A DNA stretch of 64,000 nt from Candidatus Aenigmatarchaeota archaeon (GTDB lineage Archaea > Aenigmatarchaeota > Aenigmatarchaeia > GW2011-AR5). This document shows positions 4,807-50,785 of this stretch, one piece after another. Below the pieces are notes generated by a model. The model had not been told where the DNA came from, made no database searches, and saw only the letters and a list, made by a program, of their open reading frames with translations. Numbering within the stretch: the stretch's first letter is position 1; each line of letters opens with the position of its first letter. The stretch spans positions 59,171-123,170 of the forward strand of contig JACPRW010000001.1 in the NCBI GenBank assembly GCA_016193585.1. The letters are read 5' to 3'. Position numbers and translations under genes: made by a program.

Positions 4807-6051
4807 ATGAAGCTAACAAATATGCTCAGGAACCTGTTCAAGACAGAAGAAAGCAGGTTCCAGGAAGAAAAGATACTGTCGTTTGAAGAAGCCCTGCTGC
4901 TTTTCAACAGCGGGTGCGAAAGTCTGTCTGCAGAAAAGCTTAACCAGGCACTAGGGCTTTCGGAAAAGATATTTTCTGAATTTCGCATCATGGAAGAAAC
5001 ATTGTCTGCGCTTAAGCTGCAGAAGCTCGATGAAAAATACAGGAGTTCGGAAGCGATAAAAAACCAGTTCTGCGAGAAGTTTATAGCCAGAACCCAGAAG
5101 CTTGAGATGCCGGAAAAGGATAATCATGATATCAGGAGTTTTGCAGATTCCGCAGGAATGCTAGCAGCGGACACCGGAATAACGCCAAAACAGGCAATGC
5201 ACCTGAAATTCTTTTTTGAAAGCGAAATGAAGGGAATAAGCGAGAAAATAAGGCGCATTGATGCGCTGCTGGCTGAAATGAAAGGCGTTCTGAATTCAGA
5301 GATATTTCTGGCCAAAGAAAGCATAGGCAGGTCGCTTGACAAAATCATGTCATCCACACAGTATGCAGAAATCAGCAGGAAAAAGCTAAAGAATCTGGAA
5401 AGCGATATTACCGGACTCGAGAAGCTGAAAATGAAAAATCAGGAAACACTTCGCAGATTTGATGGCAGCGAGCTGCAGCTTCATCTGGCAAATATAAATG
5501 CGCTTGAAGAAGAAAAGTCCAGACATCAACAGCGGATAATTTCTGAAATCGGCTCTGTTTCAAGGCTTCTGAAAAAATACATGCACCAGAAGAACCTACA
5601 GGACAAGCTTCTGAATACATACATTTCCGACCCGGCTGGCGCAATCCATGAAGACAAGCATCTTCAGATAAAGCAGCATCTAAGCAGTGCGGTACAGATT
5701 GCAGATGAACTGGGCGTAGAGCGAAGGCACGTGGAGCGGGCACAGGCGCTGCTGAAAAATTTTGATTCGCTCGCAGAAAGCAGGGACGCCATAGCTTCCA
5801 TTGGAAGACAGATAGCTCAAAAGGAAGACTATATTTCTAAAGCCGTAACGCCCAGAATCAGGCAAAAAGAAGCTGCCGAAGACGAGCTGGTAGCGCTGGG
5901 AAAGAAACTGGAGTCAGCCATGGCCGAGAAATATGACACCGAAAAGCAGCTGGTGCATACGCAATCTGAGGTGCAGAAATTGCAGGCTTATGTAATAGAG
6001 AGAATTTCAAGCGCATTAAGCATGAAGATAAAGCTCACTTCAGAATCCTGA
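4807..6051 (+). CDS. coiled-coil protein of unknown function
   Basis: About 415 aa, rich in K/E/L with heptad-like composition. An AGGAAGG SD lies before the ATG at 4807. No enzymatic motif is recognised. Confidence 0.55.
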   Translation: MKLTNMLRNLFKTEESRFQEEKILSFEEALLLFNSGCESLSAEKLNQALGLSEKIFSEFRIMEETLSALKLQKLDEKYRSSEAIKNQFCEKFIARTQKLEMPEKDNHDIRSFADSAGMLAADTGITPKQAMHLKFFFESEMKGISEKIRRIDALLAEMKGVLNSEIFLAKESIGRSLDKIMSSTQYAEISRKKLKNLESDITGLEKLKMKNQETLRRFDGSELQLHLANINALEEEKSRHQQRIISEIGSVSRLLKKYMHQKNLQDKLLNTYISDPAGAIHEDKHLQIKQHLSSAVQIADELGVERRHVERAQALLKNFDSLAESRDAIASIGRQIAQKEDYISKAVTPRIRQKEAAEDELVALGKKLESAMAEKYDTEKQLVHTQSEVQKLQAYVIERISSALSMKIKLTSES

Positions 6052-6651
6052 CTCTTCTCCCTTCAGTGGTAATCTTGCCTTCGGCAAACAGCCTTATAGA
6101 CTTCAGGATGATTTCCTGCTCTGCCTGCTGCACCTTGGCCTTCAGCGTGTCCACTGTTTCATTTTCTTCGATGGCAACTGCCTTCTGGAGGATGACGGGT
6201 CCTGCATCAACATCTTCAGTAACAAAGTGGAGCGTGCAGCCTGTTACCTTGCTGCCGTAGCCAAGCACGTCCTTGTGCACGTCCCTGTCCATTCCGCCTC
6301 CAAACGCCGGCAGCAGCGACGGGTGGATGTTCATAATGCGGTTCCTGTACCTGTCGACAAATGGCTTTGCTATGATTTTCATGTAGCCGATGAGCAGCAC
6401 AAGCTCGACGTTTCTCTTTTCGAGCTCCCTCATGATTTCCTCATCGTACTGTTCTCTGGTCCTGCCCTTGGGATCGATGAATAGGGCATCTATGCCATGC
6501 TTTCTGGCCCTTTCCAGCGCATACGCATCGCTTTTGTTGCTGATGACGCACGCGATGCGCGCATCCAGCGTACCTGACTGTATCGCATCGATGACCGCCT
6601 GCATGTCCGTGCCGCGCGTCGAGGCGAGGACTGCTAGTGTGACGGTCATGC
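6035..6651 (-). CDS. purN: Phosphoribosylglycinamide formyltransferase
   Basis: MTVTLAVLASTRGTDMQAVIDAIQSG...NIHPSLLPAFGG...LHFVTEDVDAGPVILQ, the PurN formyl-transferase signature. The ORF's upstream extension shows no similarity. Confidence 0.85.
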
Positions 6652-6722
6652 AGCACCAACCATGTATCACCATACAAGCAAAAAGATTATAAACCCCTCT
6701 GCCCAAAAGTATAGAAGATTGT

Positions 6723-7109
6723 ATGAACCTGAAGCTGGCAGCTCTCAAGGGAGCGATGTTATGGGCGCTCGTTTTCTTCGAAGTGAGCATACTCATGTTC
6801 GGGTTCGGCGTGCAGGTGCCGTCAACGCTCTATTACATTGTCCACCTGCCGCTCCTCGCCGCGTTCACGGCATTCGCCGCGCATCTCTATTTCAGGAAAG
6901 AAAAGCGTGCAGGAGCAAAGAACGGCTTTATGCTGGGGCTGTTGTTCCTGCTGGTAGGGATAGTCCTTGACGCGCTCATTACCGTGCCGCTGTTCGTGAG
7001 AGACTATGCATTCTTCATGCGGGCAGACATCATGGTCGGCTTTGCGGTGGTGCTGGCAGCTGCAACAGCGGTCGGCATGCGTGCGCGCAGAGGGAAAAAG
7101 AAGCGATGA
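6723..7109 (+). CDS. small integral membrane protein (4 predicted TM segments)
   Basis: 128 aa, hydrophobic, with a KKKR tail. Confidence 0.5.
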   Translation: MNLKLAALKGAMLWALVFFEVSILMFGFGVQVPSTLYYIVHLPLLAAFTAFAAHLYFRKEKRAGAKNGFMLGLLFLLVGIVLDALITVPLFVRDYAFFMRADIMVGFAVVLAAATAVGMRARRGKKKR

Positions 7110-7338
7110 GATGCTGTGTCAAGTGCCTCGCTGCATGAGCAACCATAAGCTTTCTTGCAATTGAAATAGCCAGTTGCAATGTTGCCCTCTTTCATTGCAC
7201 AGCCGGTGAATACCGAGGTGTGCCATCCTGTCTAGTGCTGTGTATGAATGAAATCCCCTTGGTGACGCGCCTAAAGGCAGCAGTTTTCAAGGCATTCAAG
7301 ATAATGATGCAATGTATCGACGTAAGTCGACAAAAAGT

Positions 7339-8721
7339 CTAATTTTCAGCACTCCTCAGCCGCTTCATGTTCCCGATGCTTCCCTGTATATGTTCGTCGG
7401 ACGCGGCATCCATCCTGTTCCAGAGGTTGCCGTGTATCGCGTGCACGCCTTCCATGGAAATGCGCCGTGCCTCATGAATGGAATCGCCGATGCCGACGGC
7501 GCACACGGTGCGCGAGTTCAGCGCATACGTTTTGCCGTCCCGCAGCTCCATGGAGCACGGGTAGATGCGCAGCTGGTCGTGATAGTGGCTCGCAAGCTTT
7601 TCAGCATCATTGAGGTCCACTTCCCGTGTGCCCTCGAATGCCGGAGCCTTGCCGCCGTAGGTGGGAGGCACCTTGTAGATGGCGACCGATGCTTTGTTTC
7701 TGGTCCGTATGCCGTGCAAATTCCCGCTAATAATACTGAAGCACGTCTCGACGAAATCGTCCTGCAGCGTCGGCATGAGGCATTGCGCTTCCGGCATGCC
7801 AAATCGGGTGTTTATCTCGAAGACCTTGAGCCCTTGCGGCGCGCAGACGAACGCGAAGTACCAGACGCCGCGCAGACCAGTGTTGCTGCCAGTGCCCTTC
7901 AGCTTGGCGAACACCTTCTGGCCGATGGCGAGCGCGTCGTCCCAGTCCTGCCGTGACATGAATGGCAATATATTCCCTGCGTCTTTGTACGAGCCCATGC
8001 CGCCGGTGTTCGGCCCTTTGTCGCCATCGAACGCCCGCTTGTAGTCGCGCACCGCCGGCGTCGGCACGAGCCGCGTGCCGTCGCTCACGAACTGGAGGCT
8101 GAATTCTTCGCCTTCTATTTTTTCCTCGATGATGACCGGGCTGTGGCCGAATATGGTCAGGAAATGCTGCCATAAATCCTCGCGTGTCGCGAAGTGGTCG
8201 CCCCACACGCCGACGCCCTTGCCGAAGCCGGGCTTGTCCGGCTTGACAGCAGCCTGATTGCCGAGCTCGTCGAGCCACGAGAACACGTCTTTTCGCGCAT
8301 CATCGATGCTTGCGTAGTCTTTCCGGTCAAAAACCCTGAATCGCGGATTCACGTCAGGCGCGGCTTCATGCAGCAGCTGCCGCTGCAGCACCTTGCTCCC
8401 TTCGACGGCAAATTCCTTGGTCGGGCATAGCATCGGTATGCCCATGGGTTCGAGCACGTCGCGGATGCCGTCGATGATGGGGTTTTCAGGCCCGACAATG
8501 CCGAAATCGATGCTGCCCTTATGCTTTTTGGCGAACGCGGCAATATCCTGCACGTCCAGATTAGGAATTATTGCGTGCTCCTTCGCGCGCTTCGCGTTGA
8601 ACGGGTTCCGCTGCTTGTCGGCGATGTAGAATTCTGTGTGGTAGTCGCTCCGCGAGAGCGCGTCGATGATGGAACACGCCCGCGCGCCGTAGCTGACGAC
8701 AAGAATGCCAACGCGCTCCAT
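7339..8721 (-). CDS. purD: Phosphoribosylamine--glycine ligase
   Basis: 460 aa starting MERVGILVVSYGARA... with the GARS N domain and an ATP-grasp (A and C domains). Confidence 0.88.
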   Translation of the reverse strand: MERVGILVVSYGARACSIIDALSRSDYHTEFYIADKQRNPFNAKRAKEHAIIPNLDVQDIAAFAKKHKGSIDFGIVGPENPIIDGIRDVLEPMGIPMLCPTKEFAVEGSKVLQRQLLHEAAPDVNPRFRVFDRKDYASIDDARKDVFSWLDELGNQAAVKPDKPGFGKGVGVWGDHFATREDLWQHFLTIFGHSPVIIEEKIEGEEFSLQFVSDGTRLVPTPAVRDYKRAFDGDKGPNTGGMGSYKDAGNILPFMSRQDWDDALAIGQKVFAKLKGTGSNTGLRGVWYFAFVCAPQGLKVFEINTRFGMPEAQCLMPTLQDDFVETCFSIISGNLHGIRTRNKASVAIYKVPPTYGGKAPAFEGTREVDLNDAEKLASHYHDQLRIYPCSMELRDGKTYALNSRTVCAVGIGDSIHEARRISMEGVHAIHGNLWNRMDAASDEHIQGSIGNMKRLRSAEN

Positions 8722-8771
8722 ATCGGGTCTTTGATGAGAAACAATTTAAGATTATACGGCATCCTACTGGT

Positions 8772-9437
8772 ATGCCCATTGTCTCTCGGTTGGTATTAAC
8801 GCCAGTGGATACGCATGAGCTTCATGCACACGGCATGTATATCAGAGGAGAAGAGATACGCCTCCGGAGGGACGAGAAGGCAGAGCTGTTTGGCAGGAAT
8901 GTCAGGCAGGGTGATGTCATATCGATTGAGTACAAGCTCAACGGCACCGCTGCTGCTGTTGCATATCACATCTCATCTGCAGAACCGCCATATGGACATG
9001 TCGGCAGAAAGACGACGGTTGTTATCGAGGGTGAACGGCATGAAGGTAGAGCAGAGGCCATGCGTGCGTATGAAACGCCTTCTTCGCTCCTTGCGTTTGC
9101 CATTGACGCGGAGGTAAGGGGACTGAAAAATGACCCACATGCCGATGTGCCATTTGAACCAGAATCAGCAAGAGGAGGTCACCAAAACCCGTACCGGCAG
9201 AGAGAACCCTTAATCGACGTGATGGAAGAGAACAACGGCGTGCGGATAGTTGTCGAGGCGCCCCCAAGAAGCGTGCGAAGATTAACGTATGCATTCAAGC
9301 GTGATGCGCTTGTGCTGGTTATAGGCGGGGTACCGTACACTGTTGACATGCCTCCGCTGGAAAATCCTGTCATCACCGAGGAAAGCCGCAACCCCGCTTC
9401 TGGAATTGTAAGCCTGCGCCTTGAGAATCGCCAATGA
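8772..9437 (+). CDS. hypothetical protein (C-terminal region weakly Hsp20/alpha-crystallin-like)
   Basis: 221 aa. The C-terminal IDVMEENNGVRIVVEAPP...LVLVIGGVPYTV resembles an ACD beta-sandwich. Confidence 0.4.
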   Translation: MPIVSRLVLTPVDTHELHAHGMYIRGEEIRLRRDEKAELFGRNVRQGDVISIEYKLNGTAAAVAYHISSAEPPYGHVGRKTTVVIEGERHEGRAEAMRAYETPSSLLAFAIDAEVRGLKNDPHADVPFEPESARGGHQNPYRQREPLIDVMEENNGVRIVVEAPPRSVRRLTYAFKRDALVLVIGGVPYTVDMPPLENPVITEESRNPASGIVSLRLENRQ

Positions 9438-9837
9438 TGCATGTGCTGCGTCACTGCTTCAAAAGTTCTTCGACTTCATCGGTGTACGCCTTGAATGGGT
9501 CGGGCGTTTGCAGCGGTGGTTTATTAAGACCTCTCGCCGGCAGTGTTGTCCACGGCTGTTCAGTCGACGGCACACGCATACCTCTCTCTGCAAGCGTCCT
9601 GATGTATAGCGACCTGCCTTGCGCGCGGGTTGCCGGCGGGTTGTCCACTGCGTAGGCTATTTCCTCATCTGCCACGAGCCGCTTGACCTGTTCCCTGTTC
9701 TGCAGGGCATAGAATAAGCTGCCCTCTCCCACCTGATGTTACCTCTAAAGTCAAGAACCCTATCTTTTATTTTCATAAAGACGGTTTCAATTCCGTAATT
9801 ATGGATTCTGCTTGTTTGGTAATTCTGTATTCTATGC

Positions 9838-14397: not shown

Positions 14398-15405
14398 ATG
14401 GCAGCAAAGGATTACAAAATCGCCACACTGGGAAGCCACACGGCGCTGCAGATTCTCAAGGGCGCCAGGGACGAGGGCTTCGAAACGATCGCCGTATGCA
14501 CCCCCCAAATGGCACCGGTATACAAAAATTTCCGCGCTGCGGACAAATTTATCGAGATTTCCTCGGTGAAGGACTTCTTCTCCGTCGAGGAGCAGCTCAT
14601 CAGGGAGAACGCCATCCTTATTCCACATGCCTCGCTCATCACGTACCTTAATCTTGACGCCATAGAACGCATGCGCGTCATGTACTACGGGAACAAAAAA
14701 ATATTGCGGTGGGAGTCGGACCGGCTGCTCGAGCGGAAGCTGCTGCAGAACGCGGGGCTGAAGCTGCCGCGCATCTTCGACTCGCCTGCCGGCATCGACC
14801 GGCCGGTCATCGTCAAGTTCTACGGCGCCAAGGGCGGCAAAGGCTATTTCGTCGTGAAGAATGAAAAGGAATTCGAGGAGAAAATGAAGCAGGAAACAAC
14901 CGGCGAGCAGTATATCATACAGGAGTACATCGTCGGCGTGCCGCTCTATGCCCATTACTTCTACTCGCGGATGAGCAGCGAACTGGAAATCATGGGCTTC
15001 GACAAGCGCTACGAATCGAACGTCGACTCCATCGGCAGGATAGCAGCGAAGGACCAGATGAACCTTAACCTTGAAACGTCGTACAACATCGTGGGCAACA
15101 TTCCGGTGGTGGTCAGGGAGTCGCTGCTGCCGCAGATTTTCTCCATGGGAACTGAGACCGTGAAAGCAGCGGAGGACGCCGGCGGCCTGTTCGGCCCTTT
15201 CTGCCTCGAGATGATCATCACGCCGCAGCTCGATTTCTACGTGTTCGAGCTTTCTGCGCGCATCGTCGCCGGCACCAATCCCTATATCGCCCATTCTCCG
15301 TACACCTACGTGCGCTACAACGAGCCGATGAGCACCGGCAGGCGCATCGCACGGGAAATCAGGGAAGCGATAGCAGCAGACAGGCTGGACGAGATTCTTG
15401 GGTAG
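14398..15405 (+). CDS. purP: 5-formaminoimidazole-4-carboxamide ribonucleotide synthetase (PurP family, ATP-grasp)
   Basis: MAAKDYKIATLGSHTALQILKGARDEGFETIAVC... is the archaeal PurP signature. Confidence 0.8.
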   Translation: MAAKDYKIATLGSHTALQILKGARDEGFETIAVCTPQMAPVYKNFRAADKFIEISSVKDFFSVEEQLIRENAILIPHASLITYLNLDAIERMRVMYYGNKKILRWESDRLLERKLLQNAGLKLPRIFDSPAGIDRPVIVKFYGAKGGKGYFVVKNEKEFEEKMKQETTGEQYIIQEYIVGVPLYAHYFYSRMSSELEIMGFDKRYESNVDSIGRIAAKDQMNLNLETSYNIVGNIPVVVRESLLPQIFSMGTETVKAAEDAGGLFGPFCLEMIITPQLDFYVFELSARIVAGTNPYIAHSPYTYVRYNEPMSTGRRIAREIREAIAADRLDEILG

Positions 15406-15409
15406 TGCT

Positions 15410-16510
15410 ATGATGAACAAAGCCGCTGGGGACGCCATCGTCAGCAAGTACAGCAGGAAGGCAATAACCATTGCAACGATCGGTTCCCACTCGGCGCTCG
15501 ACGTGTGCCGCGGCGCAAAAGATGAAGGGTTGCAGACCGTTGTCGTCTGCCAGAAAGGCAGGGAACAAACATACACGAAGCACTATAAGGTCGTAGTCGA
15601 CCACCCGCTGCTTGTCGACAAGTTCAGCGATGTCGCCAGCCCAACTGTGGTGGCGCAGCTGCAAAAGCTGAACGCGGTTTTTATCCCGAACCGCTCATTC
15701 GAAGTGTACGTGGGCGACTACAGCAGGATCGAAGCGATGGAAATCCCCTTCTTCGGCTCGCGCAGGCTCCTGCGTTTCGAGGAGCGGAACGAAAGCCCGA
15801 ACCAGTACACGCTCATGGAAAAGGCGGGCATCAGATTCCCGAAGCGTTTCGCATCGTCTGATGTTATAGATCGCCTCGTTATCGTCAAAGCAGCAGAGAG
15901 CGAGCGGAATTTCCAGCGCGAGTTCTTCTTTGCTTCATCGCCTGTAGATTTTGAGCGGAAAGCAAGGCAACTTATCGATAGGGGACTTGTTCATGGCAAG
16001 CAGCTCGACAGCGCTGTTATTGAAGAATTTGTTATCGGCGCACACATCAATTTTAATTTCTTCTACTCACCGCTCAGGAGGCGGCTGGAACTCATGGGCA
16101 CTGATTTCAGGCGGCAGACCAACCTTGATGGCTTGCTCAGGATTCCGGCGAAAGAACAGTCAGAATTTACCGTCAATCCAAGCCTCAAAGAAGCAGGCCA
16201 TGTCGCCGCGACCGTGCTCGAGAGCATGCTCGAGAAGGCATTCGGGCTGGGCGAAGCGTTTGTCGATGCGTGCCAACCCTATGGCGGCATCGTCGGCCCG
16301 TTTGCACTGCAGTCAATCATTACGCCCGGCCCGCCGAAAGAAGACATCGTCGTCTATGACGTCAGCCTGCGTATCCCCGGCTCGCCGGGCACGATGTTCA
16401 CACCCTATTCCTACTATCTACACGGCAAGCCGCTGAGCGTCGGCCGACGCATCGCCATGGAAGTGCGGGAAGCCGCGGAAACCGGGCAGCTGGAGAAGGT
16501 GGTGACGTAG
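15410..16510 (+). CDS. purP: PurP-family ATP-grasp paralogue
   Basis: KAITIATIGSHSALDVCRGAKDEGLQTVVVC... is the same family. The start is ATG 15410, or the track's GTG at 15398. Confidence 0.75.
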   Translation: MMNKAAGDAIVSKYSRKAITIATIGSHSALDVCRGAKDEGLQTVVVCQKGREQTYTKHYKVVVDHPLLVDKFSDVASPTVVAQLQKLNAVFIPNRSFEVYVGDYSRIEAMEIPFFGSRRLLRFEERNESPNQYTLMEKAGIRFPKRFASSDVIDRLVIVKAAESERNFQREFFFASSPVDFERKARQLIDRGLVHGKQLDSAVIEEFVIGAHINFNFFYSPLRRRLELMGTDFRRQTNLDGLLRIPAKEQSEFTVNPSLKEAGHVAATVLESMLEKAFGLGEAFVDACQPYGGIVGPFALQSIITPGPPKEDIVVYDVSLRIPGSPGTMFTPYSYYLHGKPLSVGRRIAMEVREAAETGQLEKVVT

Positions 16511-16618
16511 GGATTCTTTGATACATCCCTAGTAGACATAACATCTCGCAGCAGCACACAAGACGAACAAAAGTAGGCATAAGCGCTAGTTAGGCGAAAT
16601 TTATGGAGGAAGTAGAAA

Positions 16619-17353
16619 ATGGATATAAATCCTGAGAAATTCCATAGATCTATAAGTAAAGAGTTGAAGGTAATTCAGGATCGAGTTAGGAATCTTATGG
16701 GTAGTGCACATTGGGGAGAAGAAGGGAGGTATAAGGAAGCCGTATTAAGGAGCATTATAAGAAGATTCTTGCCCAAAAATGTAAGTATAGGCACAGGATT
16801 TATTTTAAAAAAAGAGGGCGACGAGATTAAAATATCAAATCAAATAGATATTATCATCTATGACAATACGTATCCAGTGCTGTTTGCAGAAGGCGATTTT
16901 TTAATAACTACACCAGCAAATGTAAAAGGAATAATAGAGGTCAAGACCAAGTTAAATTCTTCAGATGTAATGGATGTGGTTTCTAAAGCTACAAATAATG
17001 GGAAAGTAGTTGATAATGAGATATTTAGTGGAGTATTTGTTTATAACGAAGGAAATATAGTTAACAACAGCAACATAAGTGATAACCTTAAAAGTGCTTT
17101 AAAAGAGAGTAAAGGCGTTGTGAATCATATTTGTTTAGGGGAAGACATTTTCATTAAATTTTGGCCAAGGAATCCACAAAGTAACTTCCCGAATAAATAC
17201 AGTATCTACAGAATAAAAGACCTCTCCTTTTCTTATTTTATTTCTAACCTTGCTGAACAAACATCTGAGAGTAAGCTAAAAGAAAGATGGTGGTTTTTAT
17301 ATCCCATCGAAAAAGGCAAGGAGGAATATAAAATTGAGGATATTGATGTTTAA
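16619..17353 (+). CDS. PD-(D/E)xK nuclease-fold protein, possible defense/abortive-infection component
   Basis: 244 aa with SNQIDIIIYD ... GIIEVKTKL (D...ExK). The N-terminal region is helical. The gene is AT-rich with a GGAGG SD. Confidence 0.5.
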   Translation: MDINPEKFHRSISKELKVIQDRVRNLMGSAHWGEEGRYKEAVLRSIIRRFLPKNVSIGTGFILKKEGDEIKISNQIDIIIYDNTYPVLFAEGDFLITTPANVKGIIEVKTKLNSSDVMDVVSKATNNGKVVDNEIFSGVFVYNEGNIVNNSNISDNLKSALKESKGVVNHICLGEDIFIKFWPRNPQSNFPNKYSIYRIKDLSFSYFISNLAEQTSESKLKERWWFLYPIEKGKEEYKIEDIDV

Positions 17354-17559
17354 ACTTCGCCTAACATAGCATAAAAGGTTCGTGCCTCACAGCGCTCACC
17401 CAAATTTTTGCTTCGCAAAAACTTCTTTTATGCTGGAAACGTTCAACGAAATTCCGAACATTATTTCAGGCCGCCGACACGATAGCTCTTCGCTTCCAAG
17501 CCTCTGGAACGACAAGGCGAATTTATAAGGATTATCGGAAGAATTATTTATGTGATGTT

Positions 17560-18333
17560 GTGACAAGGAAGAAGGTATCCAAGAAAGATGTACATAAATT
17601 AAAAAAAGAGCCAAAATTTTCTCAAGAGATAAAAACTTCAGTAGTAATGCCTTTCAAATGTAAATTTTGTGGCAATCTTTTTGATATTGAGCACAGACTT
17701 CCAGAAAACCATACTTGTGAAGGTCTTTCTCAATGGAAAGAAAAACATTTGAAAGAATTTCATGAAGGTAAAAGTTCTATCGCATATGAAAACACGCTGG
17801 AACCAAAACATGAAGATTCAGGCTATAAAGATTCTATGAGAAACGCCCTTCGATGTGACTCAAAACAATTTTTCAAAGGAATACCAGAAAAATTCAATAA
17901 ACAGGCAATAAGATTGAATATTCATCGACTAATTCAAAAAAATATGAATGATATCGGCATATGGCTCATAGGCTTATTTATTATCTTTACAGCTTTCAAT
18001 CAGATACTAAAATACTCTATACTTGAAAGTATTTCATGGATTTTTGTTTACGTTGCAGAAATTATTTTTATATATAAGTTGATTAAGCGTGTTGACAAAA
18101 TAGAAGTAAATTCAGATTTGAGTATTTGGGGTTTAAAAATATTATCATTCATCTTTATCCTTATTGGAGTGTATATATTCTTATTCGGGTCTTTGGCATT
18201 AGCCACCGTCTATAGCCTTTATGTTCTCGGGCTTCTTGGTATAATAGCGCTAGGATTCTTTTCAATTGGCGCTTTTCTGATTTTCAAATTCAAACGAAGA
18301 AGTGGGAGCATTGTATGGGTCGGAAGAGCGTAG
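17560..18333 (+). CDS. Zn-finger (AN1-like CxxC...HxxxxxHxC) protein with two C-terminal TM helices
   Basis: [20 protein letters not shown] motif and a K-rich N-terminus, followed by two long hydrophobic helices. The start is uncertain (alternative Met at 17647). Confidence 0.45.
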
Positions 18334-18426
18334 AAGAAATTATTGTAATGAGAAAGTCGTTATAAAACTTATTTTGGCTAGCCTTAAATACTTATATAAA
18401 ATCATATATACATAAACTTATATAGA

Positions 18427-18699
18427 GTGGTAACCATGCAAAAAAGAGAAATTATACACTATCCTAACCTTAGCACAATGCTTGAAGTAGAGAAGGTCCT
18501 GAAAGAAGCAGACGGACCTATATCCAAGGAAGAACTGAAAAGGAGGCTTCCGACAAAGATTATGCACCAGACACTTAACCTTATTTTGGCATACATGGAA
18601 AACAGGGGGCTGATTTTATCAGGCCCGAAAGGCATACTCTGGACATACAATCCCAGCCCGAAACTGCAGAAAGCCATAGAAAAAGGCATTGAGATATGA
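18427..18699 (+). CDS. small winged-helix-like protein (putative antitoxin/regulator)
   Basis: 90 aa. Its stop overlaps the next gene's start (ATGA). Confidence 0.4.
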   Translation: MVTMQKREIIHYPNLSTMLEVEKVLKEADGPISKEELKRRLPTKIMHQTLNLILAYMENRGLILSGPKGILWTYNPSPKLQKAIEKGIEI

Positions 18700-19067
18700 G
18701 TAGAAATATCAACGTCATACTTAGCGAAGAAGCTACCAAGCAATATGAAGAACTGAACAGGATTGTTGGTGATGAAATAAAGAAAGGCATAACGAATTCT
18801 ATTCATCAGCAACTACTCAAATCCATAAAACAGAAATCTGAGCTTCTGAAAATCAATCCTCAGGCTGGAATACACATATCGAAAAAGCTTATACCGAAAA
18901 TCTATATAGACAAATACGATGTCGATAATCTGTGGAAAATAGATTTGTCTGGTTACTGGAGAATGACGTATACGTTGCGGACGACAGAAATAGAAATAAC
19001 GAACTTCGTTCTAGATATAGTAGATCACGTAACGTACGACAAAATACTTGGATACAAGAAAAAATAA
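18696..19067 (+). CDS. RelE/ParE-like toxin
   Basis: N-terminal ...SEEATKQYEEL...IKKGI...LKINP and C-terminal GYWRMTYTL...ITNFVLDIVDHVTY, matching the RelE/ParE fold pattern. Confidence 0.5.
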   Translation: MSRNINVILSEEATKQYEELNRIVGDEIKKGITNSIHQQLLKSIKQKSELLKINPQAGIHISKKLIPKIYIDKYDVDNLWKIDLSGYWRMTYTLRTTEIEITNFVLDIVDHVTYDKILGYKKK

Positions 19068-19466
19068 ACATCGCCTTGTAGCCAAAACCATTCTGAACCT
19101 GAAGAGCCACTTTCAGGCCGTCGGCGGTCCTGTTTTCAGTATTGTGCTGAATGCCTTGCATTCGCACATCTTCGGAGAAATATAATTTCTCCGAGATTCA
19201 GAAAATCTTCGATTTTCGAGAAATTTGCACGAACCTATGGTTCGGTGCAGTATTGTCGGAACTCTTCGCTTTCCTGCGGAAAGCTCGCTTTTCTTTCAGA
19301 AAAGTCGCTGAACAGCGATTAGAAGATCCGCTTCTGCGAAGCTCCATCCAAATGGCGATTATATAAAAAGAAATAATCGCCACTTCTTCTAATCGCATAC
19401 GTTATGCTCAATTCGTGGGCTCGCCGGTTAAAAAGTTTATTAAGCCAACTTAACTATTGATTAATT

Positions 19467-22159
19467 ATGGTAGACATTTTATATATTTTTTCAGGTTCAC
19501 CGTTGCTCTACATTCTCATATTAACATTAATTGCATTAGGTACATTCCTAATCTGGAAGTCATTCAAAACAAAATATAAATTCATTTTTTTAGGGGTTTT
19601 AGGCTTGGGAATAATCACTGTTCTCCTATTTTCTTTTATTAATACTCAACAAGGATCACCTGAACCGGATGCATCTGGAAAATCAGGCTACACATTGACT
19701 CTAAAAGAAGTGTGGGGTTCGAAGAGATGGATAAAGACCTTCGAAAGGCCCGGTAGTGATTATCCATTTGCAGTTCTGCAAACCTCTGACGGCGGGTATG
19801 TGGTTAGCGGGAGAACAAATAACGGCACGAAAGATTGCTATGGCGGGACCCCTATGATTTTAACATTCCTTTTCAAGACAGACGCGGATGGAAACAAAGT
19901 CTGGGAAAAGTTTCATTACGCTGGCAGAATAGTTTCAATCCAGCAGACTTCTGACGGAGGGCTGGTGGCTACAGGATCAATAGCTGCCACTGACACAGGA
20001 ATTGATGTTTACCTTGTAAAAACAGACGCGAAAGGCAGTATTACTTGGGAGAAGAGCTATGGTGAGAGTGATCCCGAGGGAGGATTTTCCGTCCAGCAGA
20101 CTTCTGACGGAGGGTATATCATTGCGGGGGGGGGACAGGTAGACGCTTGGGAAATCAAGGGATTTACTTGCTTAAAGTTGACAGCAACGGAAACAAATTG
20201 TGGAGCAGGATATTCGCCAAAGATTTAAAGACGGATGAGGAACCGCAACTGGTCCAGCAGGCTGCTGATGGAGGCTATATAGTTGTTGGGTGGAGGAAAT
20301 CGCAAGGAATGCCCAGCATAAAAGAAGACCCTAATGACCCATACATTGATGACGACGTCTATTTGCTAAGGACTGATTCATTAGGGAATAAGATTTGGGA
20401 GAAGACGATTGACGCATTTGGGAAGCGTGCAGACGAGAGGCTTGTGCATGATGCCTTGCAAACACCTGACGGAGGTTATGTAATTGTTGGAGGCTCAGCA
20501 CCCATTGTAAGATCAAATGGCGCACTACAAAGTTCGAGCCCCTATGTCTATTTGCTCAAGATTGATTCTGACGGGAACAAAACATGGACGAAGGATTATG
20601 GTATGGGAATTGGTCATTTAGTTCAGCTAACGTCCGACGGCGGTTACATAATCACTGGAGAGGTAATAGACAACGTGGGTCCAAATTACCTTGTGAAGAT
20701 AGGAACGGACAGTGACGGGAATAAGTTGTGGGAGAAACCCATTGAAATACTTAATACATATCAGGGCAAGGATTACCCAAATGTGGTTAAGCCAACCTTT
20801 GACAGCGGCTACATAGTCCTTGGAACCAGAGAATATGGCGACCTTATGGGATATGCCGGCATGCTGGAATCTGATACCCTGCTCATGAAGATAGAAGAAA
20901 CAGACACACTAAGATTGCCGGATTATGAGCGGGTACCGCCGCGTGAAACGAAGTTGCCCACCCAAGTTGAGCTACTGACTCCGACGGGAAAAGGATGGAT
21001 GAAGACAGTTGGAGGGAGTTTAGGCTCAAAGGCGCGAGCCGTGCAGAAGACATCTGACGGAGGCTATATAGTTGCAGGTTGGACTCATCGTAGTGTGACA
21101 GTACCTTATGGATTGAACGACACGACAGTCCTGACACAAAGGGAAGCATATATTGTTAAGACAGATGGAAATGGAAATAAAGTTTGGGAGAAGAGCTTTG
21201 GAGGAGATGGGTTTGAAGACGGGTTTTCAGTACAGCAAACCCCTGACAGCGGGTATATGGTTCTTGGAATCAAGGAGGCATATGCCTATCTGATAAAAAC
21301 AGATGCTTATGGAAACACGCAGTGGAATAAGACACTTGGTGAAAATTATGGTGATGTGGGTTTTTCACTCCTGCAGGCTTCTGACAGTGGATACATAATT
21401 GTTGGGATTACACAAGGCCATGGTGCGACCCCGTGTAACGCAAAAGAACCTGAGCGAGGCGCATCAGCTGATGTCTATATCATAAAGACTGATGCTGACG
21501 GAAACAAATTGTGGGAAAAAGTAATTGGCGGAACGCATATGGATATAGGATATTTTGTGCAGAAGACTTCTGACGGCAATTATATAATAACTGGAATGAC
21601 AGCTTCATTTAGTGAAAAAGGAGTCGAGGATGTTTACCTGCTTAAAATAGACAGCCATGGCAACAAATTGTGGGAAAAGGCAATTGGGGGGGACAAAAGC
21701 GAGATGGGCTATTCAGTACAACAAACTACTGACGGCGGTTATGTAATTGTTGGGCAAACAGTTTGGTCAATCAAAGGAGCAGATATGGGTGAAGGGGGTT
21801 ATGCTAGCCAGTCAGATATCTATTTAATAAAAACAGATACATACGGGAACAAAATCTGGGAAAAGACGTTTGGGGGGAGTTCGATGGATAGGGGATTTTC
21901 AGTGCAGCAGACTTCCGACGGCGGGTACATCATTACCGGAGACACAGACGGGCATCTTTACCTCTTCAAAACAGATGCAGACGGGAATAAAGTCTGGGAA
22001 AAGGCATTCAAAAGAGACGAGACCAAGCCATTCACGGGACGGTCTGTCAAGCAGACTACTGACGGCGGGTACATGGTTGTTGCAAATACGTTTTACACGT
22101 CAACACCTGCCTATCAGCCTATAATACTCATAAAGACAGACGCAAACGGGGATGTGTGA
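19467..22159 (+). pseudogene. secreted multi-repeat beta-propeller-like surface protein, frameshifted at a G9 tract
   Basis: It has an N-terminal TM/signal segment and 15 or more roughly 55-aa repeats (QQTSDGGYII.G....D.YL.KTD..GNK.WEK..GG). ORF 19467-20228 (frame 0) and ORF 20147-22159 (frame 2) share the same repeat and join if the G9 run at 20126-20134 gains one G. Confidence 0.6.
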
Positions 22160-23087
22160 AATTGTGAGAAAAACAATTTTTATAATCCCTTTGCTGATTT
22201 TGATTGTTTTTGTCAGTGGCTGCGTCGGGCAGGGACCTGGCATGAATCCGACTGTAATAACCGGCAAGACAACCATTGAGAAAAGCGGTTTGTACGTCTT
22301 GAACAGCGACATCTCCTGCACCGCCGAAGGTGAAATGGACGTATGCATCGATATACAGAGGCATGACGCTGTGCTTGATTGCCAGGGTCACAGCATAACT
22401 CTGGCGAATCAACAGGCCCGCCGCGGCCCTGCCAGTACCGGGATATACATAGCTGGCAGCGGCGTGGAGGACGTGACTGCCAGGAATACCGTCAGGAATT
22501 GCAGGATTGAGAACTTTGCATTCGGCATATTCCTCAAGGCCAGTTCCAACAACTTCATCAACAACACCATCAGCAACAATGGCATCGGAATCTACTACGA
22601 CGACTTTTCCTCGTACAACATTTTCATAAACAACACGGTGAGTAATAACAACAATAGAGGCATCTACCTGTTCATGCGCTCGTCCAACAACAATTTTACA
22701 GGCAACATTGTAAGAAACAATAGCATATACGGCATCATTATCACCTGCGCGGCACACCACAACACCTTTTCCAACAACGTGGTTGAAGGCAACGGATACG
22801 GCAGCACGAGTGACGAGAACGGCGGAATCTACATCCTCAACTCATACGCCAACGTCTTTTCAGGCAACGGGATATGCAACAACTCGAAAACCATTAAATG
22901 CAAGTTCGATGCCACAATGGAAGGCATAAGTGATATCTGCAGGCCGCAAGTCCTTCCAGACACCATTCCAATTGACAGGGATGCACAGGAAGCCGGAAAC
23001 CTCATTGACGGCGGGGGAAACACCTGTGGTCCGAGCTCCATGAGCTGCGACGGCACCACCATAAGCTGCATCAGGGGTTGCCCATGA
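22152..23087 (+). CDS. right-handed parallel beta-helix (NosD/pectin-lyase-like) lipoprotein
   Basis: Lipobox FVSGC, then N/G-rich approximately 22-aa repeats (NNTISNNGIGIYY, NNTVSNNNNRGIYL, ...). Confidence 0.65.
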   Translation: MCEIVRKTIFIIPLLILIVFVSGCVGQGPGMNPTVITGKTTIEKSGLYVLNSDISCTAEGEMDVCIDIQRHDAVLDCQGHSITLANQQARRGPASTGIYIAGSGVEDVTARNTVRNCRIENFAFGIFLKASSNNFINNTISNNGIGIYYDDFSSYNIFINNTVSNNNNRGIYLFMRSSNNNFTGNIVRNNSIYGIIITCAAHHNTFSNNVVEGNGYGSTSDENGGIYILNSYANVFSGNGICNNSKTIKCKFDATMEGISDICRPQVLPDTIPIDRDAQEAGNLIDGGGNTCGPSSMSCDGTTISCIRGCP

Positions 23088-24604
23088 AAAATCTGGCTAT
23101 TTTCTTTTTATTGTTTATTTCAATAGCACTTATCAGCGGCTGTGTCCAACAACCGTCTAAACTAAAGGATTCAGAAACACCGGGCTATGCATCATCAGGC
23201 ACAACCGGCAAATATCCGGAACAAAATCCAGATTGTGCAAACTCAGGTGTGAAAACCTGGGCAAAAGTGTTTGGCGGGCCTGGATTTGATTATGCAACTT
23301 CACTCCAGCAAACTCCTGATGGAGGGTATGTGGTTACTGGACTCCTTAATTCCGGACCGACGGACTCGACCGGCGAAAAGCAGTATGATGTCCTTTTGTT
23401 CAAGGTTGATATGGACGGGAACAAAGTATGGGAGAAGTCGTACGGGGGGAATGAGAACGATTTCGCATTCTCACTGCAACAGACTGCTGACGGTGGATAC
23501 ATTATCGGAGGAGAAACGCGTTCCTTTGAAGATAAAGGTGCCAATGCCTATCTTATAAAAACCGATGCCGATGGCAATCTGCAATGGAACAGGACATTCG
23601 ATATGTGCGGAGGAAACGAGTCTGACAGGGTACTCTCAGTGAGGCAGACTTCTGATGGTGGGTACATAAGTGCAGGCGTTACATTTTCCTGCAGCCAAAA
23701 GCTCTGGGGGGAACAGCTCCCATGGGACGACTCCTTCCTTCTTAAAACAGATGCAAACGGTAATATGTTGTGGGAGCGCATTTTTGGATGGAAGGAGAAC
23801 ATAGACCAGGCGCTTTCGGTCCAGCAGACCTCTGACGGAGGATTCGTGGCCATCGGATACATACACTATTATGACCCAAACGGACCTATCTATATCTATG
23901 GACGAGACATTTACTTGGTAAAAACTGATAAAGATGGAAACATACTGTGGAACAAAACATTCGGAATCGGTAACAAGACATCTCTTGGAAACGGATTGAA
24001 TAATGCGGAAGTGTTACAGCAGACTTCCGATGGAGGATATGTGGTTGCCGGACAAGGAGCCGACAGACGACTATATCTGCTGAAAGCTGATGCGAACGGC
24101 AATAAAGTCTGGGAAAAATCAATTGGAGATCTGAATTTGCATAGCAGGGGATACTCTGTAAAGGAAACAACTGACGGCGGCTACTTCATTATAGGGGCAC
24201 GATGCATTCCAGACTATGAACCGAGAACCATAATTGTCGACAGTAATGTTATTCTTGAGCATCCATGTGAGTTCTACTTCCTGAAAACTGATGCGAACGG
24301 AAACATAGTATCGGAGATGTCCGGCGGGCGCACTTTCAATGGCGTGCTATGGCCAGGCCAGCAGACTCCTGACGGGGGATACATAATTGTTGAAACTGTA
24401 TTCCCAAGAGTGAGCGCGACCCAGTATGCAAAGACGACTGACATCCTCATGATGAAGCTGAATGAGAATGGAGTTGTATGTAACCTTACTTATGGCCAAC
24501 CCTGCACACTGGTGCCTGAGCCAGAGTGGATAAACAACCCCGCATGCAAAAATCTTATTTATGATGAAGAGTACATTCACAATCCCTATCTCCCAGAGCG
24601 ATAA
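23078..24604 (+). CDS. beta-propeller repeat lipoprotein (same repeat family as 19467-22159)
   Basis: Lipobox LISGC, then repeated QQTSDGGY...YLLK.DANGNKVWEK units. Confidence 0.65.
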   Translation: MPMKNLAIFFLLFISIALISGCVQQPSKLKDSETPGYASSGTTGKYPEQNPDCANSGVKTWAKVFGGPGFDYATSLQQTPDGGYVVTGLLNSGPTDSTGEKQYDVLLFKVDMDGNKVWEKSYGGNENDFAFSLQQTADGGYIIGGETRSFEDKGANAYLIKTDADGNLQWNRTFDMCGGNESDRVLSVRQTSDGGYISAGVTFSCSQKLWGEQLPWDDSFLLKTDANGNMLWERIFGWKENIDQALSVQQTSDGGFVAIGYIHYYDPNGPIYIYGRDIYLVKTDKDGNILWNKTFGIGNKTSLGNGLNNAEVLQQTSDGGYVVAGQGADRRLYLLKADANGNKVWEKSIGDLNLHSRGYSVKETTDGGYFIIGARCIPDYEPRTIIVDSNVILEHPCEFYFLKTDANGNIVSEMSGGRTFNGVLWPGQQTPDGGYIIVETVFPRVSATQYAKTTDILMMKLNENGVVCNLTYGQPCTLVPEPEWINNPACKNLIYDEEYIHNPYLPER

Positions 24605-24668
24605 GACTCCGGGTAAATTCCATAATGGTCGATTAAAATGAGAAACGCGAAGGAAATGAGTAAAGGTA

Positions 24669-25235
24669 TTGTTAGCTTTGATTGTCTTTGTCAGCGGCTG
24701 CGTCCAAGAGGAAAAACAGGTTGAAAAGCAAGAAGAAAAACCAAAAATAGAGGAACGCTATTTTCCTGGCTGGGCACCAGCTCCGCTTGGATTGGCAATT
24801 ACCCCAGATGGAAAAACAGCCTACATTCCCTTCGGACTTGACGATGCGTTACTGGTAGTGAACTTATCAACATTTGCTGTCATCGATTCGATAGATGTAT
24901 CTGAAGCCGGCAACATGCTTCTTTTAACTGCTACAGTCTTGGGTCCAGACGGGAAAAAGCTTTACGTTTCCAACTATGGAACCAAGAACGTGATGGTGGT
25001 AGATACAGAAAACAAACGTGTTGAGAAGGTGCTTCCGTTAAATCCACTCCATGCAGCCGCCATCGCAATATCACGAGATGGAAGCAAAGCCTACGCGCCC
25101 TCAAAAGATGGGGGACTGTACGTAATAAATACTTTAGACAATTCGTATAACCGCATTTTTATACCCGGAGTTATTTTTGGCCCGGTAGTGCCTTCTTCCA
25201 GCAATCCAGAGTTAGTGTATTGGCCGACTTCATGA
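24669..25235 (+). CDS. YVTN-family beta-propeller lipoprotein
   Basis: TTG start with lipobox IVFVSGC, then ITPDGKTAYIP.../GPDGKKLYVSNYGTKNVMVVD.../SRDGSKAYAP YVTN-type blades. Confidence 0.55.
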   Translation: MLALIVFVSGCVQEEKQVEKQEEKPKIEERYFPGWAPAPLGLAITPDGKTAYIPFGLDDALLVVNLSTFAVIDSIDVSEAGNMLLLTATVLGPDGKKLYVSNYGTKNVMVVDTENKRVEKVLPLNPLHAAAIAISRDGSKAYAPSKDGGLYVINTLDNSYNRIFIPGVIFGPVVPSSSNPELVYWPTS

Positions 25236-25259
25236 AGTCCCGATACGTTGTATGCATTG

Positions 25260-50690: not shown

Positions 50691-50785
50691 AGCCACCGAA
50701 GGGAATTGAACCCTTAACCTGCAGTTCAATCGGAAGGTTTCTCCTCTTACAAAACTGCTGCTCTGCCAGGTTGAGCTACGGTGGC
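50691..50785 (-). tRNA. tRNA-Thr(UGU) with 21-nt intron in the anticodon loop
   Basis: Hand-folded as GCCACCG-TA-GCTC-AACCTGGCA-GAGC-A-GCAGT-TTTGTAA-[agaggagaaaccttccgattg]-ACTGC-AGGTT-AAGGG-TTCAATT-CCCTT-CGGTGGC-T. Every stem pairs and the anticodon is TGT. Confidence 0.8.

Follow-up and report, generated by a model that had tools for sequence, protein, structure and literature searches.

A candidate two-cassette integron-type array with a NucC-fold nuclease gene in the purine-gene cluster of an Aenigmatarchaeota archaeon

We analysed a stretch of 64,000 nt from Candidatus Aenigmatarchaeota archaeon (assembly GCA_016193585.1, contig JACPRW010000001.1), hereafter the window, with positions numbered from its first letter. 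The window is an archaeal housekeeping region that carries purC, purB, purN, purD, purF, purA, tandem purP and purQ/L/M, along with genes for the signal recognition particle receptor, cysteinyl-tRNA synthetase, exosome RNase PH subunits and a geranylgeranyl reductase. Inside this archaeal purine-gene cluster, between purP and a beta-propeller gene, lies an AT-rich island (16589 to ~19460) that holds four open reading frames (ORFs) on the + strand, designated g1, g2, g3 and g4 (Table 1). In 400-nt windows the G+C content (GC) is 0.29–0.39 across 16600–19600, compared with 0.55–0.58 in the purP pair upstream and ~0.45 downstream; by feature, it is 0.33 for g1, 0.33 for g2, 0.42 for g3 and 0.35 for g4. 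An earlier reading of these letters and their predicted ORFs (the sequence-only reading) had remarked on the sharp GC drop, the four ORFs and the ATGA overlap of g3 and g4, all of which we confirmed. Its view of the locus as a horizontally acquired accessory island, holding a PD-(D/E)xK nuclease related to defence effectors and a RelE/ParE-type toxin–antitoxin (TA) pair, is likewise supported. The proposal that the four genes make up a single defence system is, however, probably wrong. We favour, with fair confidence, the reading that the island is an integron-type array of two independent cassettes without an integrase (CALIN, cluster of attC sites lacking an integron integrase).

Table 1. 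Features of the island and their positions in the window. A slash within a sequence marks the cassette boundary.
Feature	Position	Strand	Remarks
Left cassette junction, G/TTAGGC	16589..16595	+	Fits R' (GTTRRRY); DNA homology to L006 and L008 starts exactly here
Junction sequence, purP 3' side			GCGCTAG/TTATGCTCAATTCG
Left arm of 15-nt inverted repeat	16589..16603	+	GTTAGGCGAAATTTA
Cassette 1, g1 and attC1, 852 bp	16590..17441	+	Bounds from G/TT in two R' boxes
g1, 244-aa DUF6602 PD-(D/E)xK nuclease (predicted), NucC fold	16619..17353	+
Right arm of 15-nt inverted repeat	17351..17365		TAAACTTCGCCTAAC
attC1 (attC-like site), 89 nt	17359..17447	+	Covariance model 73.9 bits, E 5e-17 window-wide; R'' GCCTAAC, L'' GCATAAAA, terminal hairpin TTTTTGC/GCAAAAA (here the slash separates the two arms), L' TTTTATGC, R' G/TTCAAC
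Cassette 2, g2, inserted g3–g4 unit and attC2, 1960 bp	17442..19401	+	Starts TTCAAC, ends at G of R' GTTATGC
g2, degenerate AN1 finger and four transmembrane helices	17560..18333	+	GTG 17560 gives 257 aa; ATG 17647 gives 228 aa
Self-contained g3–g4 unit, with upstream region (two ACTTATATA repeats) and 65-nt 3' tail	~18384..19132	+
g3, 87-aa putative antitoxin	18436..18699	+	First-stage GTG start, 18427, is 3 codons upstream
g4, 123-aa RelE/ParE-fold toxin (predicted), DPANN-restricted family	18696..19067	+
attC2 (attC-like site), 101 nt	19307..19407	+	Covariance model 24.3 bits, filters off; R'' GCTGAAC, 12-bp L stem, terminal hairpin, R' G/TTATGC

The core sites of integrons are R', GTTRRRY, and R'', RYYYAAC. 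Judged by their letters, two heptamers that bracket g1 fit these core sites: GTTAGGC at 16589–16595 and its perfect complement GCCTAAC, the R'' at 17359–17365. In locus L006, from a Methanocellales metagenome-assembled genome (MAG), GTTAGGC recurs as the R' that closes an attC of the same family, lying upstream. The 15-nt inverted repeat around g1 is conserved in L006 and in L008, a metagenome contig, and a different yet complementary repeat pair occupies the same position in L020, a WOR-3 homologue that is 56% identical. The bottom strand of attC1 folds into an R stem, an L stem and a terminal stem, and its R' box, GTTCAAC, keeps the GTT, with its final 4 nt already part of the cassette that follows. 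The second site, attC2, was found with an E-value of 2.5e-4 in 12.5 kb and of 1.3e-3 in the whole window (filters off). Its R'' and R' each deviate once from the strict core-site consensus, and it carries the family motifs CCAAAT and ACTTC. The DNA fold of attC2 has a z of −4.95, with 0/200 shuffles as stable, and on the bottom strand it forms R, L and terminal stems with unpaired spacers. It was also flagged independently by a structure-only scan for R boxes and L-stem complementarity; that scan is unspecific, with 16 matches in the window vs 1–13 in shuffles, and was used solely as an independent notice of attC2. With filters off, attC1 and attC2 are the only covariance-model matches in the 64-kb window, and their lengths fall within the 57–141 nt given as the hairpin criterion for attC. 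The left junction coincides with the start of the AT-rich stretch, and attC2 lies ~60 nt from its end.

CALINs are recognized by two or more attC sites that face the same way, lie <4 kb from each other and stand downstream of ORFs, and Aenigmatarchaeota are among the archaeal phyla that bear integrons (Ghaly et al. 2022, PMC9668308). The window array resembles them in its co-oriented ORFs, each with an attC-type hairpin, in the membership of its attC copies in one family, and in the placement of both sites on the same strand, 1.86 kb apart. One archaeal attC listed among those tested in that study has R boxes identical to the GCCTAAC/GTTAGGC of the window. The window array differs from these CALINs in having only two sites, in an attC1 R stem that extends to 15 bp, and in the TA unit inserted in cassette 2; unlike a complete integron, no IntI or attI was found at the window. 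Since each cassette ends in its own attC-like, presumably recombinable site, the two would be independent, exchangeable units.

Some further patterns at the cassette edges were considered. The start of cassette 2, TTCAAC, is complementary to its own R'' (GCTGAAC) at five of six nucleotides; the rule that the first 6 nt of a cassette complement its own R'' is perfect in g1 cassettes and holds at 4–5 of 6 positions elsewhere, and we regard it as weak evidence. A direct repeat, TTTCAGGCCGNCG, with copies at 17464 and 19111, was rejected as the att pair of the g2–g4 segment: its 12/13 match is, by our estimate, at chance level, and the copy at 19111 belongs to the TA unit and is also kept in locus L071. 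The ~170 nt of non-coding DNA between the TA unit and attC2 (19133–19306) contain several short hairpins (e.g. 19174–19192 and 19268–19284) and match nothing in the fetched loci or Rfam. A GGAGG motif resembling a Shine–Dalgarno sequence stands 8 nt upstream of the g1 ATG, and no obvious archaeal promoter was seen upstream of g1; the gene may be transcribed by read-through from purP, or else be silent.

To place the two sites among relatives, a covariance model from five copies was searched over 629 kb of fetched loci, and 13 sites were recovered. All 13 are co-oriented with genes and downstream of ORFs, and their spacing in arrays is 0.65–2.1 kb. They share the grammar R''(RYYYAAC)–L''–terminal hairpin–L'–R'(GTTRRRY), span 76–101 nt and fold on the bottom strand. 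Over the 13 copies, 83% of cells pair, vs 25–45% in slid controls, and 18/23 pairs change on both sides, a level of covariation that none of 500 shuffles matched. Family copies follow g1 copies in L015 and L017, where attC1 is shared, and follow the WOR-3 homologue in L020. They also precede g1 homologues in L064 (Deltaproteobacteria) and L006, and there the R' (GTTGTGC or GTTAGGC) starts the g1 cassette. In L020 the order is uvrB ... DUF6602, attC, an N6/N4 methylase with MjaI endonuclease, attC, an ORF, attC ... fumarase; this array, from a WOR-3 bacterium MAG, occupies 5957–9585 with three cassettes, the last ORF being 174 aa long and all attC belonging to one family. In L040 (Aminicenantes) an AAA_15 ATPase gene, an attC, an ORF with a DUF6602 gene and another attC follow one another, and in L008 a SIR2_2 gene is followed by a family attC.

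Copies of the g1 cassette itself occur in unrelated contexts in L006 and L008, with 88.7–90.5% nucleotide identity to the window, and a metagenome scan for close relatives of g1 found only three loci. In L006 and L008 the similarity begins at the left core site, spans R'' and breaks off ~6 nt after it. Downstream of that shared portion, the DNA of the two loci (L006 3209–3330, L008 1105–1230) resembles neither attC1 nor that of the other locus. The g1 cassette copy in L015 (1–853) looks degenerate: the first 24 nt of an attC-like sequence stand in place of its start region, and loss of the stop codon lets the reading frame run on into R''.

The product of g1 matches Pfam DUF6602 (E 2e-20), PADLOC PD_DExK (2e-24) and PADLOC NucC (4e-14). 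The PADLOC matches run through its N-terminal half, and solved NucC chains are also matched by sequence. An AlphaFold model drawn from 56 homologues reached a predicted local distance difference test (pLDDT) score of 88.5, and its 14 best PDB matches by Foldseek are all NucC (218–244 aligned columns, TM-score 0.57–0.68, identity 16–20%); the next match is a restriction enzyme, at E 7e-3. The whole length of the fold is shared, the long N-terminal helix included. The D...ExK nuclease core read earlier from the letters is borne out, with D77, E107 and K109 invariant in the 56 homologues and corresponding to D73, E104 and K106 of NucC, and the motif IDx29EVK standing against IDx30EAK in the Mg2+ site of NucC. 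The g1 family has >1,200 full-length matches in many bacterial and archaeal phyla; no phage homologues of g1 were found. At 44 loci with g1 homologues, no neighbour family occurs more than twice. The contexts that were inspected resemble defence islands and are all different, featuring MmeI-type restriction–modification, SIR2, AbiEii, an Abi protein with IS110, or a helicase/ATPase. With no conserved neighbour in 44 loci and each context different, we conclude that g1 is a stand-alone unit. A counterpart from bacteria is Damona, a single-gene DUF6602 cassette from the chromosomal integron of Vibrio cholerae, with measured anti-phage activity and reported to match the hidden Markov models (HMMs) of Cas PD_DExK and a CBASS (cyclic-oligonucleotide-based antiphage signalling system) small endonuclease (Darracq et al. 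2024, bioRxiv 10.1101/2024.07.02.601686). g1 shares with it the DUF6602 domain, the same two secondary HMM matches and the position as sole gene of an integron-type cassette.

For g2, the sequence-only reading had combined an AN1-like zinc finger with two transmembrane (TM) helices. The finger is there, as a CxxC...HxxxxxHxC half-finger that scores 36.6 bits in Pfam (PF01428) against a gathering score of 27.9; only one of the two zinc sites is kept. Its ligands are C34, C37, H45, H51 and C53 alone, in place of the eight ligands of AN1, and by comparison with full-length relatives it has lost the first CxxC as well as the fifth Cys. Hydropathy gives four TM segments, not two, and this 4-TM domain, to which the finger is fused, is conserved and carries no family assignment. 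Gene callers and homologues favour M30, at 17647, as the start. When 1.8 billion cluster representatives were searched exhaustively, 204 matched, most of them by the finger alone; the family that joins the finger to four TM helices and a conserved C-terminal end is rare, with ~20 representatives. The closest relative has ~50% identity, with no g1, TA genes or attC nearby. A synteny of g2 with the beta-propeller gene was considered and dropped, as the propellers of the window and of locus L004 have no BLASTP similarity.

The last two genes appear to form a type II TA unit. The RelE/ParE fold suggested for g4 is upheld by an AlphaFold model (pLDDT 83) whose 50 best PDB matches are ParE, YoeB, RelE, YafQ, HigB and related RelE/ParE-fold toxins, together with the Cami1 effector, at probabilities up to 1.00; a sequence search of the PDB gave HigB at E 0.3. 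The g4 family numbers ~170 proteins, all from DPANN archaea where the source gives a name, and has the invariant motif GYWRMxYT...DHxxY. Its invariant residues R89, Y92, H111 and Y114 suggest a toxin of the RNase type. The winged helix proposed for g3 is weakly supported, by sub-threshold Pfam matches only (E 0.0018), and searches of PDB sequences and profiles returned nothing significant. Neither g3 nor g4 has an above-threshold match among the curated models of Pfam, NCBIfam and PADLOC. A g3 homologue precedes a g4 homologue with a 1- or 4-nt overlap in L010, L012, L013, L071 and L073, in contexts that differ and are mostly housekeeping. Like known RelE/ParE type II systems, the pair thus has the toxin fold, a small upstream partner with an ATGA overlap, and a pairing that is kept, and it sits in a cassette array. 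It is unlike them in the longer helical N-terminal part of g4 (123 aa, vs 83–118 aa in solved toxins) and in its restriction to DPANN without a curated model match; unlike the TA cassettes of integrons, the g3–g4 unit is not itself bounded by attC. High nucleotide identity to L071 is confined to ~18384–19132, that is, to the pair, its upstream region and its tail, with g2 and attC2 outside. From this limited block of identity we conclude that g3–g4 is a mobile unit of its own, inserted in cassette 2. Upstream of g3 there are two ACTTATATA repeats 25 nt apart (18384–18430), kept in other copies of the pair such as L010 (5713–5727) and L071, and likely a promoter/operator for autoregulation. An upstream 15-mer of the unit is also conserved in L010 and L011.

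That the four genes could work as one coordinated defence or abortive-infection system, in which the nuclease is an effector, the zinc-finger membrane protein a sensor or effector and the TA pair a regulator, would be in keeping with their common orientation and close spacing in one AT-rich island, and with an arrangement that is the same in every contig of this organism. We consider this very improbable: g1 and g2 are separated by an attC-like site, g2 falls outside the TA homology block, and the genes do not co-occur elsewhere, with the closest g2 relative alone, g3–g4 alone in six other loci and no relatives of g2, g3 or g4 in the inspected contexts of g1 homologues. Set against the refuting outcome that the sequence-only reading had named, the result is mixed: g1 is not a housekeeping nuclease, yet no genomic linkage of g1 to g2 was seen in other loci. 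As for what g1 does, NucC is the endonuclease of type III CBASS and of some type III CRISPR systems, activated by cyclic tri-adenylate (cA3); its R53 binds phosphate, its Y81 stacks on adenine, its gate loop is latched by H136 and Y141, and mutants in R53, H136 or Y141 lose activation by cA3 (Lau et al., bioRxiv 10.1101/694703). Were g1 a genuine NucC, it would be activated by cA3 from a CBASS cyclase or a type III CRISPR Cas10 elsewhere in the genome, and the full-length fold, the shared active-site motif, the PADLOC matches to NucC and to CRISPR-associated PD_DExK, and an equivalent of Y81 in Y85 all speak for this. The gate loop, however, is missing from the whole g1 family: in an hhalign profile comparison with nucC of a plasmid CBASS operon, NucC ~128–146 stands opposite gaps, with 17 residues deleted, the two latch residues among them. 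R53 is replaced by N54, and T226, another cA3 contact, lies beyond the reliably aligned region. No cyclase was found near the 44 g1 homologues or in the Pfam-scanned part of the window, whereas true nucC sits in a CBASS operon. Activation of g1 by cA3 is thus improbable. By its model, g1 is predicted to be a restriction-type nuclease in its working and a NucC in its looks, one that most likely cuts DNA without a cyclic-oligonucleotide signal; from its relatives we infer an antiviral or anti-plasmid role.

The hairpins might also be repeats of another sort, such as terminators, elements like REP (repetitive extragenic palindromic) sequences or MITEs (miniature inverted-repeat transposable elements), or the terminal inverted repeats of an insertion cassette, in which case the island arrived by another route. 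Consistent with this, a 15-nt inverted repeat flanks g1 and homology largely breaks there, as in a cassette bounded by terminal inverted repeats, and the downstream attC is not shared in L006 and L008. Yet the repeat ends exactly in the GTT.../...AAC core sites and amounts to R'/R'' plus 8 further complementary stem bases; no target-site duplications were found around it, and Rfam has no match in the island. The three-helix structure and its covariation are conserved over bacteria and archaea, and the hairpins lie always downstream of ORFs, in one orientation and at array distances of 0.65–2.1 kb. We therefore judge such an origin unlikely. An assembly or binning artefact at the junction of archaeal genes and cassettes could be suspected in a MAG whose cassettes have relatives in other phyla. 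The order purP-g1-g2-g3-g4-propeller recurs on 9–10 contigs, the listed examples coming from at least 4 separate sequencing runs, so the junctions are not an accident of assembly; with flanks of archaeal type (tandem purP, exosome RNase PH subunits, geranylgeranyl reductase) and a DPANN-specific g3–g4 family, an artefact can hardly be the explanation. Several observations do weigh against the array of integron-type cassettes that we prefer. As the sequence-only reading had noted, there is no integron integrase or recombinase among the Pfam-annotated genes within ±10 kb or the 20 largest ORFs of the window, and neither IntI nor attI was found in the window or in related loci, including L020 and L040. 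The attC calls derive from a family covariance model built from five copies of this very hairpin family, and the alignment used for covariation was fitted to the model and is biased towards structure. Just 24 bits are scored by attC2, of which no copy was found elsewhere, and no attC was found near g2 homologues or other g3–g4 copies. The break downstream of g1 in L006 and L008 is not predicted by a simple cassette model and suggests, on our assumption, decay or replacement of the attC. Finally, the host of g1 is an archaeon, and its likeness to Damona is one of domain signature only.

If the island is an array of integron-type cassettes, the attC-like site at the end of each, whose bottom strand folds to a hairpin, could be recombined at the G/TT of its R' box by an integron integrase supplied in trans. 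Cassette 1 would contribute a stand-alone DNA endonuclease of NucC fold, with an Mg2+ site of the restriction-enzyme type and no cA3 gate loop. Cassette 2 would contribute a membrane protein made of half an AN1 finger and four TM helices, into which cassette a TA unit was later inserted, with g3 as the antitoxin and g4 as the toxin, most likely an mRNA interferase. The pair would serve as an addiction or stress module and, in the manner of the TA cassettes of bacterial integrons, may stabilize the array. What the analysis shows directly is the anatomy, the folds, the family memberships, the separateness of the units and the recurrence of the attC family; recombination, DNA cleavage by g1 and its control, a part in defence and toxicity of the TA pair are predictions.

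Around the island, a search for an empty insertion site by exact look-up of the PurP2 protein found none, as 9/9 contigs carry the island. The stretch from purP2 to purQ (16589–25240) has a GC of 0.43–0.49, below the 0.55–0.58 of the surrounding pur genes, and contains the cassettes, propeller proteins, a NosD/beta-helix protein and ORFs without assignment. This lower GC over the whole stretch suggests that the cassette array lies at the edge of a larger variable insert in the purine cluster. Upstream, the two purP paralogues (DUF1246/DUF1297) stand in tandem at 14398–16510 with an 8-nt overlap. Downstream, the beta-propeller gene (19467–22159), which in contig L001 is intact and encodes 897 aa, is broken here into two ORFs of 253 and 670 aa that overlap, through loss of 1 nt near 20134 by comparison with L001; it is also split in L067, from another run. 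A tRNA-Tyr on the − strand (50691–50785) is 95 nt long against a tRNA model of 71 positions and probably contains an intron. No CRISPR-like array was found in the window.

Nothing here is categorically new: there are published precedents for integrons in archaea, for cassettes that carry defence genes, for defence by DUF6602 proteins and for RelE/ParE pairs. What is new is this instance and the spread across domains of one attC family with defence cargo, as well as a stand-alone DUF6602 family that amounts to NucC without the gate loop and an orphan AN1/4-TM cassette protein. A wider proposal is doubtful when taken as a whole: that one attC family spreads antiviral cassettes among WOR-3, Aminicenantes, Deltaproteobacteria, Methanocellales and DPANN, that these include NucC-fold nucleases independent of cyclic nucleotides and devoid of the gate loop, and that g2 is a new membrane-acting defence protein. 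The locus presents a well-delimited integron-type array inside the housekeeping gene cluster of a DPANN-labelled archaeon; its g1 cassette is nearly identical in a MAG of a methanogen lineage, and its attC family recurs in bacterial arrays of restriction–modification, SIR2 and ATPase genes. In this way the array would join two recent findings, that integrons exist in Archaea and that anti-phage genes are stored in integron cassettes. Its attC1, attC2 and 244-aa g1 are short, directly testable objects, and the g1 family brings into view >1,200 NucC-fold nucleases without a signal-binding gate loop.

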